From: a phage
DNA: 64,000 nucleotides
Sequence record: PX915677.1
Direction: 5' to 3' (one strand)
Shown: positions 22,630-35,964 of the stretch, in pieces
Layout: every line of letters starts with the position of its first letter
Numbering within the stretch: position 1 is the first letter of the stretch
The notes under the pieces: generated by a model
The model's input: the letters and a program-made list of their open reading frames with translations, nothing else
What the model was told of the DNA's origin: nothing
Databases searched by the model: none
Made by a program: the position numbers and the translations under genes

Positions 22630-22638
22630 TAAAAGAAA

Positions 22639-22677
22639 AGCCCTCAAGGAGAAATCCAAGAGGGCTTTATTTGTTTC
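22639..22677. terminator. bidirectional terminator-like hairpin at convergence of the two strand blocks
   Basis: agccctc/gagggct 7-bp stem flanked by T-rich runs on both strands (ttatttgtttc on +, cttttctttt on -). Confidence 0.4.
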
Positions 22678-22721
22678 TAAGTTTTAAAAACCATCAAATT
22701 CGTCATACATCCCAATTCTCT

Positions 22722-22814
22722 TCAGAAGTCTGGATGTTCATCTTCAAAGCATCCTGAGATGCCTCCATAGAACCAATCCGATTTACTTCCAAGGATAACA
22801 ACTTCTTCATTCAT
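22722..22814 (-). CDS. hypothetical small protein (30 aa)
   Basis: MNEEVVILGSKSDWFYGG...; strong SD aggaggg 3 nt upstream; not in ORF track (under 60 aa). Confidence 0.25.
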   Translation of the reverse strand: MNEEVVILGSKSDWFYGGISGCFEDEHPDF

Positions 22815-22822
22815 ATACCCTC

Positions 22823-22984
22823 CTAGATTGTGTTTATAAAATTAGTAAGTTTCTCTTCACTTTCATCAAAAGCTTTTCCAGCTGCTTCCATCTCCCAAGT
22901 ATCGGCATTATCAATAAAGCTCTGAGCTTCTAGTAGGTCATGGATTAAGTCGAAGAGCTTGTTTTTATCTGCTTGTGTGATCAT
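22823..22984 (-). CDS. hypothetical small acidic protein (53 aa)
   Basis: MITQADKNKLFDLIHDLLEAQSFIDNADTWEMEAAGKAFDESEEKLTNFINTI; SD aggaa; hand-derived coordinates. Confidence 0.3.
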   Translation of the reverse strand: MITQADKNKLFDLIHDLLEAQSFIDNADTWEMEAAGKAFDESEEKLTNFINTI

Positions 22985-22992
22985 GTCAGTTC

Positions 22993-23220
22993 CTAGATTA
23001 AATCGTAATACTGAATAATGTCAGAGAGTTTGAACTCTCGAATCTCATCTTTCTCTACATCTATCGCTGTCATAATCCAACAAGGTTTGCCACCGTTATG
23101 AAAACGGGAGCTAGCAACGGAGGTTCGGAGTGGAATAACGGACCGGTCAGCAACCTCGCCTCTCCAATTGCGATAGCGAAAGCGAAGCACTTGTTGCGTA
23201 GATTTTTGATCATCACTCAT
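22993..23220 (-). CDS. small WYL-like domain protein
   Basis: FRYRNWRGEVADRSVIPL...GKPCWIMTAIDVEKDEIREFKLSDI resembles WYL-domain signature; start set at internal ATG abutting the HNH stop. Confidence 0.35.
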   Translation of the reverse strand: MSDDQKSTQQVLRFRYRNWRGEVADRSVIPLRTSVASSRFHNGGKPCWIMTAIDVEKDEIREFKLSDIIQYYDLI

Positions 23221-23614
23221 TTCCTTTTTTGAATTGTTTTCTTGCATCATTCTCTTCTTTTGTTTTAATCTTATGACAAGGGTCTTTACACAGAACTTGA
23301 AATCCCTCTTTCTCACACAGAGCACGAGAGATGATTTCATCCCAAGTTGCTTCATGATCTAAGGGAACTATAGGTTCTATGTGGTCAATAGCCATATCCT
23401 TTACAGGGTGGTCAGAACCACACATGGCACACTTAAAGTGCATTGCCAATCTACCTGTCTTTGGATTAATCTTCTGCTCTGTCTTGGCGTCTGCTAGTGC
23501 ATCGAACATGGGCTTCCACTTTCTAGTCAGAGAACGAATCCCTGACTTGATGAAAGAGTTATAACGAGCTTCAGTCCACATTCCACTACAGCGTATCTTC
23601 TCAGACTTCGCCAT
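23213..23614 (-). CDS. HNH endonuclease
   Basis: HFKCAMCGSDHPVKDMAIDHIEPIVPLDHEATWDE...LCKDPCH HNH zinc-finger nuclease motif. Confidence 0.7.
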   Translation of the reverse strand: MAKSEKIRCSGMWTEARYNSFIKSGIRSLTRKWKPMFDALADAKTEQKINPKTGRLAMHFKCAMCGSDHPVKDMAIDHIEPIVPLDHEATWDEIISRALCEKEGFQVLCKDPCHKIKTKEENDARKQFKKGNE

Positions 23615-23790: not shown

Positions 23791-24303
23791 TTATTTTATC
23801 CAGTCTCTTTCTATATAGGAGGTTGTGAGCTTACGTCTCTCTGCTTCAGTGGAGAAGATGACTACTACACTTCCTTTAGTGTTACCACTAACACTTTGCT
23901 GTGTATCTGCTCTTGTGAAACTCACACGACCACCTGTTATGAAAACAATCTCATCAGCATGGTTTATACACTTAGTAAACCACTTAACAGAAGTATCAGC
24001 TGGTAGCAATAAAACTGTACCAACTTTAAGTTTCTTGTTTTTGATTGCCAAGTCAACCCAAGGAGTTATGTCTGAATATGGAGGATTACACCAAGTGTAA
24101 GTGTTTCTGAACTCAGAGAAATCATAGGTTAGAGAATCCATTTCCTCTGTTATATATTTTTCTAGTAGATGATTCTTGTCACTAGATGCTATATCACAGG
24201 AGAATTCAAACCTTGTGTTAAAGAAATCAAACAGCCATTTAGGGGTTTGCCATAAATCTCTAATGTCTTCTGGGGTATTACTAGATCTATAATCTGTTAC
24301 CAT
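23791..24303 (-). CDS. DNA N6-adenine methyltransferase (phage Dam-like)
   Basis: WQTPKWLFDFFNTRFEFSCDIAS and catalytic NPPY motif (TWCNPPYSDITPW). Confidence 0.75.
   Translation of the reverse strand: MVTDYRSSNTPEDIRDLWQTPKWLFDFFNTRFEFSCDIASSDKNHLLEKYITEEMDSLTYDFSEFRNTYTWCNPPYSDITPWVDLAIKNKKLKVGTVLLLPADTSVKWFTKCINHADEIVFITGGRVSFTRADTQQSVSGNTKGSVVVIFSTEAERRKLTTSYIERDWIK

Positions 24304-25991: not shown

Positions 25992-25995
<4 letters not shown>
25102..25995 (-). CDS. P-loop kinase (putative dNMP or polynucleotide kinase)
   Basis: Walker A LNGPPGCGKDT; ATG overlaps upstream stop (ATGA coupling). Confidence 0.4.
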
Positions 25996-27487
<1,492 letters not shown>

Positions 27488-27488
<1 letters not shown>

Positions 27489-28540: not shown

Positions 28541-28564
28541 GAAAAAAGCCACCCGGAGGTGGCT
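28541..28564 (-). terminator. rho-independent terminator (minus strand)
   Basis: agccacc-loop-ggtggct stem with U-tract on the minus strand (A6 on plus 28541-46). Confidence 0.6.
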
Positions 28565-29332: not shown

Positions 29333-29391
29333 ATTTTAATTTCCTTATTTAATTTGAAAGATTGTTGCTCTCTTTGAGCGGTTATGTATAG

Positions 29392-29400
29392 TATACATTA
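29392..29400 (-). promoter_or_regulatory. candidate phage-specific promoter element TAATGTATA (minus strand)
   Basis: 59 nt upstream of SSB-like gene start 29332. Confidence 0.4.
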
Positions 29401-29463
29401 CGCTTATACCGATAAGAGTACTATATAATATAAGTATCTTTGGTAGTAGATATAACACACTAA

Positions 29464-29472
29464 TAATGTATA
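29464..29472 (+). promoter_or_regulatory. candidate promoter element TAATGTATA (plus strand, orphan)
   Basis: Same 9-mer on the opposite strand inside the 415-bp ORF-free region 29333-29748. Confidence 0.25.
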
Positions 29473-29748
29473 TATTGTATAGCTGATAAAGTTATTGCAG
29501 GCTTGTATATTGGGCAATTCACAGAATCCCTTGCAAGTACCGAAGGGCAGGAGCCACCTGCGAGATAAAAATAGAGAATTAAGGAATCCTTGATTTAGGT
29601 TGTAGGGACTCCTAGGGACTTTGATTCTCTATTTAAAAGAATATTAATTACTTATTACCTAAATAATTAACTAACTTACTTAAACCAAATTCAAGAATAA
29701 TAGATAAAAAGATTATTCCTAAGAAAGCTAAAAAGTAAAGGATATAAG

Positions 29749-35955: not shown

Positions 35956-35964
35956 TATACATTA
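35956..35964 (-). promoter_or_regulatory. candidate phage-specific promoter element TAATGTATA (minus strand)
   Basis: 36 nt upstream of ATG 35919. Confidence 0.4.

Follow-up and report, generated by a model that had tools for sequence, protein, structure and literature searches.

A stand-alone WYL-type barrel from the middle gene cluster of phiEco32-like coliphages and its mini-WYL relatives

To our knowledge, the WYL proteins studied so far are all multi-domain sensors, most of them transcription factors that read single-stranded DNA (ssDNA) and switch on defence or repair. What, then, might a WYL domain do when it makes up almost the whole of a protein? The question is raised by a short gene in phage record PX915677.1, of which a stretch of 64,000 nt, here called the window, was analysed; all positions refer to that whole stretch. 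The ~4 kb around the gene are 96-97% identical to Escherichia phages EK5, DE5 and phiEco32, and the window can therefore be assigned, by nucleotide identity, to a phiEco32-like coliphage genome of the genus Kuravirus (Gordonclarkvirinae). The ORF of about 75 aa that an earlier note had reported from the letters of the sequence, at 22993..23220, is real and exactly placed; the ORF list and the sequence put this WYL-domain CDS on the minus strand, and its translation (23220..22993) gives the 75-aa product MSDDQKSTQQVLRFRYRNWRGEVADRSVIPLRTSVASSRFHNGGKPCWIMTAIDVEKDEIREFKLSDIIQYYDLI. Its counterpart in the phiEco32 RefSeq entry is phi32_29, labelled 'hypothetical protein', and the product is called gp29 below. 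Homologues at least 60% identical to gp29 occur in 99 phage records, as does the Kuravirus sigma factor, with gp29 in 99 of the 99; because the two counts are equal, gp29 is taken as a core gene of Kuravirus. Its label in these records is still mostly 'hypothetical protein'.

The exact start codon of the gene is not certain. RefSeq uses the ATG at 23220 (75 aa), most gene callers prefer the ATG at 23250, 30 nt upstream (85 aa, P0001), and a third in-frame ATG lies beside the latter at 23247 (84 aa); some relatives have Thr at the position of the 75-aa start. The extra residues of the longer forms constitute a variable N-terminal tail and leave the domain unaffected, conservation beginning at about Ser7. 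An ORF of 120 aa, starting at 23355, was rejected, since it lies nearly all within the HNH gene in another frame and conservation begins only at about Ser7. A word-indexed protein search with gp29 retrieved 19 close relatives. Further downstream, a 41-nt stretch at 22684-22724, comprising the last codons of a 35-aa ORF (gp27) and the DNA just 3' of it, is 95% identical to ~125 T4-like Klebsiella/Raoultella phages of ~166 kb. These 125 matches were discarded as relatives of gp29, because the matched DNA lies outside its gene.

The WYL-type assignment made in the earlier note holds. Every motif quoted there is present in gp29 (Y16-R-N-W-R-G-E22, R26-x-V-x-P30 and W48-x-M-x-A-I-D54-x6-R61-x-F-x-L-x-x-I68), with the correction that the gap between E22 and R26 is of three residues instead of two. 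Pfam WYL (PF13280) matches residues 9-68 at 22.3 bits (E = 1.4e-4), above the curated gathering cut-off of 21.8 bits, which is a marginal score for a single sequence; the PADLOC WYL model matches at E = 1.1e-4, and phrog_3715, from a PHROG without assigned function, at E = 1.5e-22. Among 149 representatives of the family described below, 84 match Pfam WYL individually (best E = 4.3e-11) and just one touches WYL_2 (DUF2693). Pfam and NCBIfam scans of gp29 revealed no domain besides WYL, the NCBIfam scan giving no match and the Pfam scan none to an Hfq or Sm profile. A single-sequence search of PDB sequences gave no match either, and a PDB profile search returned weak WYL matches only (E 0.03-0.6), which served for residue mapping and not as evidence of homology.

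An AlphaFold2 (AF2) model of gp29, built on 17 relatives, has a pLDDT of 83.6 (<50 for residues 1-4) and is all-beta, with five strands at residues 12-17, 23-37, 46-54, 59-64 and 68-74. Foldseek ranks 1-28 against the PDB are all WYL domains of PafBC, BrxR, CapW or DriD, at a probability of at least 0.99 and a TM of 0.54-0.65 normalised to the query; the Sm-like protein 2e12 is a weak fold match (TM 0.38), and a BFVD search with the model found other small phage proteins, uncharacterised or merely labelled WYL. Since PF13280 scores above its cut-off, AF2 yields a barrel and WYL domains fill the first 28 PDB fold ranks, gp29 is predicted to be a single WYL-type (Sm-like SH3) five-stranded beta-barrel. 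A lack of WYL fold support had been named as what would overturn the assignment; both the profile and the AF2/Foldseek comparison support WYL. The description of the protein as stand-alone is likewise sustained, as residues 9-68 form the barrel and no other Pfam or NCBIfam domain is present.

This architecture bears directly on function. CapW, BrxR, PafBC and DriD are wHTH-WYL-WCX dimers with their ssDNA pocket between WYL and WCX, and the ligands of the solved WYL domains cited are all ssDNA (PMC11662680, PMC10853764, PMC13622015). In gp29, no HTH or other DNA-binding domain was found by Pfam and NCBIfam or in the all-beta model, and the WCX extension is absent, the protein ending seven residues after its last barrel strand starts. 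A role for gp29 as a transcription factor is ruled out by the missing DNA-binding domain and, with neither HTH nor WCX, it is not a regulator of the CapW/BrxR type.

The gene sits in a leftward unit. Immediately upstream is the gp30 homologue (23213..23614, minus strand, 133 aa; RefSeq product 'HNH endonuclease'), whose translation shows the CxxC...DHIxP...CxxxCH motifs of an HNH-type endonuclease and which gave no significant match in a Pfam scan. The TGA of this HNH gene and the gp29 ATG overlap by 8 nt (ATGAGTGA), from which translational coupling is suggested, and gp30 is a candidate functional partner of gp29. On the 3' side, in the same transcription unit, follows the gp28 homologue (22823..22984, minus strand), encoding an acidic 53-aa protein of Pfam DUF7438; more distant relatives lack this gene, and there the WYL gene comes last. 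Beyond gp27 lies a bidirectional intrinsic-terminator-like hairpin (at ~22640-22667, within 22633..22676; GCCCTCAAGG...CCAAGAGGGC) flanked by A and T runs, with an RNA fold of -27.1 kcal/mol (z = -3.1 vs shuffles). It separates gp27, of the leftward middle cluster, from a convergent late gene on the plus strand for a 1488-aa virion protein, and marks the end of the operon containing gp29. A consensus terminator scan near gp29 did not list this hairpin, and a sigma-70 promoter and terminator scan of the same region gave counts close to those of shuffles.

The earlier note had placed the gene at the end of an early operon, of which the position stands and the class does not: gp29 is distal in the leftward unit, three genes before the terminator hairpin, and belongs to the middle class, not the early one (PMC8948821, PMC4331800). 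In phiEco32, the cluster with the DNA polymerase, the nucleotide-metabolism genes and the sigma factor gp36 is of middle class and is partly transcribed from gp36-dependent promoters with the consensus tAATGTAtA (PMC8948821, PMC4331800). The leftward order there is exonuclease gp33, HNH gp31, HNH gp30, gp29 and the tiny genes gp28 and gp27. In the window, the first half of the operon encodes a Macro-domain protein, the sigma factor, a SLOG-family protein, a dNMP-kinase-like protein and a 5'-3' exonuclease, and the second half a Dam methylase, a 59-aa ORF, the HNH and WYL proteins, the DUF7438 protein and the 35-aa ORF. The gp29 gene is thus third from last in the middle cluster, with no defence operon beside it.

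The nearest gp36 promoter motif upstream on the coding strand is an exact TAATGTATA at 29392..29400 (minus strand), a candidate middle promoter for a unit reaching gp29. Its count across the whole window is not above chance, so that the assignment relies on its position and on PMC8948821; between this motif and the gp29 gene there is also a terminator-like hairpin (28564..28547), and read-through is therefore assumed. A second exact copy on the coding strand is at 35964..35956. The intergenic stretch 29382-29481, upstream of the gp40 homologue, contains four copies of TAATGTATA on both strands within 100 bp, two exact and two with one mismatch, and may represent divergent or tandem middle promoters.

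Several features of the operon deserve mention in their own right. A gene for a Dam-family N6-adenine methyltransferase (23791-24303, minus strand) occupies the slot of the phiEco32 HNH endonuclease gp31; its DNA is common to just three other phage records, EK5, DE5 and EcM-vB1, and a Dam gene is also found in the equivalent slot of a distant relative (L244). The sigma gene is flanked by a SLOG-family (YAcAr) gene (25995-26384, minus strand), an assignment marginally below the Pfam cut-off, and by a Macro-domain gene (27051-27488, minus strand), which together with WYL places three domains for nucleotide- or ADP-ribose-type ligands in one middle operon. The phiEco32 record (NC_010324) has no SSB annotation, though the phage has its own polymerase, primase/helicase, ligase and exonucleases, and the SSB role may be filled by one small hypothetical protein.

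How widespread is such a protein? Exhaustive profile searching yielded 2724 cluster representatives (E <= 0.001), the best 150 of which are mostly of 63-175 aa; gp29 therefore belongs to a large family of mostly stand-alone proteins, here termed mini-WYL. Its members occur in phages, a giant virus, bacteria (including CPR) and archaea (DPANN/methanogenic), with pairwise identities of 30-45%. The giant-virus member, BFVD entry V9SDX8 from Tunisvirus fontaine2 (Marseilleviridae, of amoebae), is an 83-aa protein 38% identical to gp29 (TM 0.77), and the family therefore extends to a virus of eukaryotes. One representative, P0024, contains two tandem copies of the mini-WYL signature, a hint that these proteins could form oligomers. 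Thirteen positions (Y16, N18, G21, R26, P30, H41, W48, A52, D54, K57, R61, F63 and D67) are each conserved in at least 90% of the 149 representatives.

Residues were mapped by ungapped profile alignments to four solved WYL domains, with W48, D54 and R61-x-F63 as anchors. All four alignments pair R61 with the Arg of the conserved R-x-F motif, and the two that extend far enough pair R26 with the Arg of an R-x-V-x-P-type motif. By offset counting, and for R61 and F63 by these alignments too, Y16, R26, R61 and F63 of gp29 fall on DriD Y168, R178, R204 and W206, which are ssDNA contacts (PMC10853764). The arginines that flank Trp in the RWHVR motif of CapW/BrxR are replaced in the mini-WYL family (R164 by C/Q, R168 by T). 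The Arg whose mutation abolishes the response (Ec CapW R200, equivalent to Rl R184; Vch BrxR R197; PMC11662680, PMC13622015) is Asp67 in gp29, and Asp in 140 of 149 members, in alignments without gaps to the four solved domains. Three of the four CapW ssDNA-contact residues, the essential Arg included, are accordingly missing. The beta2-beta3 hairpin of mini-WYL proteins is ~6 residues longer and bears the invariant His41; the N-terminal half of gp29 has a net charge of +6, and the family core averages +0.3, that is, neutral. Basic residues line the ligand groove of WYL domains, at four positions according to PMC4012209. As R26 and R61 are kept, the RWHVR arginines lost, the charge at position 67 reversed and the core neutral, the predicted ligand site would be part canonical and part remodelled, and the ligand could be ssDNA in another binding mode or some other phosphate-bearing molecule.

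Gene neighbourhoods offer a second line of evidence. In two more distant phage loci (L243 and L244, with WYL proteins P0016 and P0011 62% and 74% identical to gp29), the order exonuclease, (Dam), small ORF, HNH and WYL is kept, the HNH proteins are 70-72% identical, the HNH and WYL genes share 29-47 nt, and no further gene separates WYL from the convergent virion gene. Elsewhere the company varies. The rV5-like phages have a homologue, 43% identical, directly beside endonuclease VII and ahead of the genes for a polymerase exonuclease subunit and a Dam methylase. Vibrio phage Vp_R1 has one at the second position after ThyX, with ligase and ribonucleotide reductase (RNR) nearby, and that of a Rhizobium phage is flanked by ThyX on one side and by dUTPase/RNR genes on the other. 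Fused forms also exist, with a mini-WYL inside a 266-aa protein of Caulobacter phage Sansa, encoded two genes 3' of the beta-clamp gene, and another as the C-terminus of a 504-aa protein of Aeromonas phage D3 annotated as CYTH-like; Pfam scans of the longer fusion proteins found one HD_4 domain and weak zinc-ribbon or Lar-like matches.

Further loci were collected with a DNA pattern back-translated from the C-terminal motif, which samples only members that fit the consensus. In IMG/VR, 106 members were verified among its matches. At 83 dereplicated viral loci, Pfam scans of the 134 nearest large neighbours on the same strand recognised beta clamp (4), endonuclease VII (4), integrase (3), dCTP deaminase-like proteins (DCD; 2) and ThyX (2), more rarely RecT, DNA methylase, pyrimidine-dimer glycosylase, HNH and RNase H-like proteins, and in the majority nothing. 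Defence genes were not seen as neighbours in the viral loci examined.

The explanation that we favour, tentatively, is that gp29 serves phage DNA metabolism as an accessory protein which binds nucleic acid or a nucleotide and tunes a partner enzyme. It would be produced in the middle phase, alongside the phage enzymes for replication, recombination and nucleotide metabolism, and, as a dimer or small oligomer, would bind a phosphate-bearing ligand through the conserved face of Y16, N18, R26, H41, R61 and F63. Single-stranded nucleic acid, as a short segment or an end, would be the most likely ligand, and a (deoxy)nucleotide the alternative. In the ligand-bound state it might then tune a DNA-processing enzyme through protein-protein contacts. 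In Kuraviruses the HNH nuclease gp30, with its overlapping gene, is the most likely candidate partner, and this is consistent with the WYL-HNH nuclease fusions on record (PMC4012209). We count in favour of this account the fold matches, the spacing of the DriD contacts, the positive N-terminal half, the core status of the gene, its middle-cluster context, the conserved HNH-WYL overlap, the adjacency to endonuclease VII and the ThyX, RNR, dUTPase, ligase and beta-clamp neighbours. Against it count the missing WCX, a domain from which DriD and CapW build half their ssDNA pocket, the three lost CapW contacts with the essential Arg turned into Asp67, a neutral family core that is unusual for a non-specific ssDNA binder, the restriction of nuclease adjacency to a few lineages and the lack of annotation for most viral neighbours.

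The cellular relatives widen the question of the ligand. The same pattern found at least 120 cellular loci, essentially all of true family members, and the hosts among the matches listed are bacteria of great diversity, CPR included, as well as archaea (DPANN or methanogenic). Among these matches, the immediate same-strand 3' gene encodes a dCTP-deaminase homologue of 330-365 aa in 12 of 94 dereplicated loci (L025, L026, L028, L030, L036, L042, L043, L057, L077, L078, L092 and L096), with anything from an overlap of a few bases to a gap of 33 nt. The pair spans at least ten phyla: Actinomycetota, Acidobacteriota, Spirochaetota, Planctomycetota, Nitrospirota, Myxococcota, Bacillota, Eremiobacterota, Omnitrophota and Patescibacteria. 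In its first 185 residues, the DCD-like partner matches Mycobacterium tuberculosis Dcd (2qxx; E = 3e-25); the catalytic Glu is Gln in most copies, and C-terminal hydrophobic helices are present. PADLOC matched no defence model in ten of these partners, so the pair was not called as a known defence system, and a literature search for WYL with dCTP deaminase found nothing linking the two. Other recurrent neighbours among the matches listed are RNR, NrdR, D-Tyr-tRNA deacylase (dtd), DUF1653, beta clamp and integrases, and the 94 dereplicated loci among these matches showed no enrichment of defence families beside mini-WYL genes. In two Clostridia MAGs (L007 and L098), groES (Cpn10) and groEL (Cpn60) flank the gene, all three on one strand, an unexpected setting for WYL. 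Taken over viruses and cells, mini-WYL genes are recurrently linked to genes of DNA replication, recombination and dNTP metabolism.

These cellular pairs raise the possibility, which we rate as rather unlikely, that mini-WYL proteins bind a free (deoxy)nucleotide and allosterically regulate the enzymes of dNTP supply: in the phage, gp72 (dCTP deaminase), gp64 (thymidylate synthase) or gp34 (dNMP-kinase-like), and in cells the DCD-like protein or RNR. The 12 DCD-adjacent loci in at least ten phyla fit such a role, as do RNR and NrdR within two genes at several further cellular loci (both among the matches listed), phage copies near ThyX, dUTPase, RNR and PRPP synthetase, and the rare fusions to an HD_4 phosphohydrolase domain and a CYTH-like-annotated protein; phiEco32 has its own dCTP deaminase and thymidylate synthase, and a neutral core with invariant Asp, His, Asn and Tyr plus Arg and Lys in the pocket would suit a base-plus-phosphate ligand. 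The Kuravirus gene itself, however, is not beside dNTP enzymes, being ~17 kb from gp72, and only ~15-20% of the cellular loci among the matches listed have a dNTP-metabolism neighbour. Catalysis by the cellular DCD-like partner is also uncertain, given the Gln that mostly replaces the catalytic Glu, and the literature found gives no mononucleotide or dNTP as ligand for WYL. One WYL regulator is reported to sense c-di-GMP (PMC11880434).

The groES-groEL and dtd settings, which are stress and translation contexts, together with the Sm-like fold of gp29, could instead point to a protein that binds phage or host RNA in an Hfq/Sm- or CspA-like mode and alters its translation or stability, for example that of its own polycistronic transcript. 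Among the Foldseek matches to gp29 is 6oaw, which we take to be the crystal structure of WYL1, the accessory protein of Cas13d. WYL1 binds ssRNA. No RNA-related neighbours were seen in the phage loci, though, gp29 has no Hfq/Sm profile match, and the dominant context is DNA metabolism, so that such a role seems highly improbable.

The proposal in the earlier note that gp29 acts as a decoy or regulator of host defence did not fare well, as the protein has no DNA-binding domain, has lost three of four CapW contacts, with Asp67 at the essential position, and keeps company with DNA and dNTP metabolism, not defence. In its fullest form the proposal would have gp29 sequester the ssDNA or nucleotide cue of host BrxR or CapW or, alternatively, mimic the mini-WYL subunit of a host system of WYL plus DCD-like protein, and so keep defence from being induced or activated. 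There is some basis for it: ssDNA lifts the repression that host WYL proteins exert on BREX and CBASS in the course of a restricted infection (PMC13622015, PMC11662680), gp29 is a small phage protein with their fold, its operon encodes Macro and SLOG-family proteins, domains tied to nucleotide-based conflict systems (PMC9503650), and the bacterial pair of mini-WYL and membrane-anchored DCD-like protein could be a defence system. The idea is weakened, however, because the key ssDNA-contact Arg is reversed to Asp, because gp29 is a core, middle-class gene among replication genes, outside the variable early host-takeover region (PMC8948821), and because cellular members occupy ordinary chromosomal settings (groES-groEL, RNR and dtd among them). 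No PADLOC defence model recognises the ten DCD-like partners scanned, and BREX derepression is not required to block primary infection (PMC13622015), which weakens the selective rationale for a decoy. We consider a decoy function unlikely.

Elements of these alternatives can be combined into a broader scheme, to be held only with much doubt. In it, gp29 would be the phage branch of an undescribed, very widespread mini-WYL family whose members respond to the state of deoxynucleotides or ssDNA and control the enzymes of dNTP supply. Many bacteria would have it in a two-gene module with a membrane-anchored DCD-like protein, possibly a dCTP-directed stress or defence system, and the phage copy would either run phage dNTP supply or neutralise the host module.

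What the analysis delivers at present is a sound domain annotation, and not a demonstrated new mechanism; the linkage of the family to dNTP and DNA metabolism is a useful lead. A free-standing barrel that is core to a phage genus, has its contact Arg changed to Asp and travels with replication and dNTP genes represents a different use of the WYL domain. Were the ligand and partner of gp29 found, this would show how a common small sensor module works without an output domain, and could annotate thousands of 'hypothetical' small proteins, given the 2724 cluster representatives.

As to how gp29 compares with known systems, CapW and BrxR are like it in the WYL barrel (7qfz, 7t8k/l, 7tb5/6 and 9c5g, TM 0.56-0.65, probability 1.0) and in the positions of the R-x-V-x-P, W, D and R-x-F motifs. 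Unlike them, gp29 is without wHTH and WCX, and hence without promoter binding and a WYL/WCX ssDNA crevice, and further differs in the missing RWHVR arginines, in Asp67 at the essential position and in the longer beta2-beta3 hairpin with His41; they are repressors of CBASS, BREX and other defence operons, whereas the gp29 gene adjoins none. DriD and PafBC share the fold (9fnd, 6sj9, 8tp8, 7tzv), and the spacing of Y16, R26, R61 and F63 is that of the DriD ssDNA contacts. These proteins, however, are multi-domain, dimeric, ssDNA-activated activators of the DNA-damage response, in contrast to the single-domain gp29, which would have no role in RNA polymerase recruitment and lacks both WCX residues, Y240 and R288, that complete the DriD pocket.

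The auto-annotated phage 'WYL domain-containing protein' entries and Pfam WYL_2 (DUF2693) are small, single-domain phage proteins with the same barrel, among which those of Vibrio phage Vp_R1, Rhizobium phage RHph_TM30, Aeromonas phage LAh_9 and Cronobacter phage A24 are direct family members; they provide an automatic domain label only, with no function, and literature searches for stand-alone phage WYL proteins and for phiEco32 with WYL found nothing relevant. By analogy only, barrels of the Hfq/Sm and CspA types are likewise five-stranded, of 65-80 residues, and act alone or as oligomers on single-stranded nucleic acids, with no sequence or profile relationship to gp29. In WYL domains fused to enzymes (Cas3, HNH nuclease, helicases such as Pif1, exoRNase), the module is coupled to a nucleic-acid enzyme, whereas gp29 is a separate polypeptide; the overlapping genes for gp30 (HNH) and gp29 (WYL) resemble, in their arrangement, a split HNH-WYL fusion (PMC4012209). 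Set beside these systems, the sole-barrel gp29 is a variant of a known domain family.
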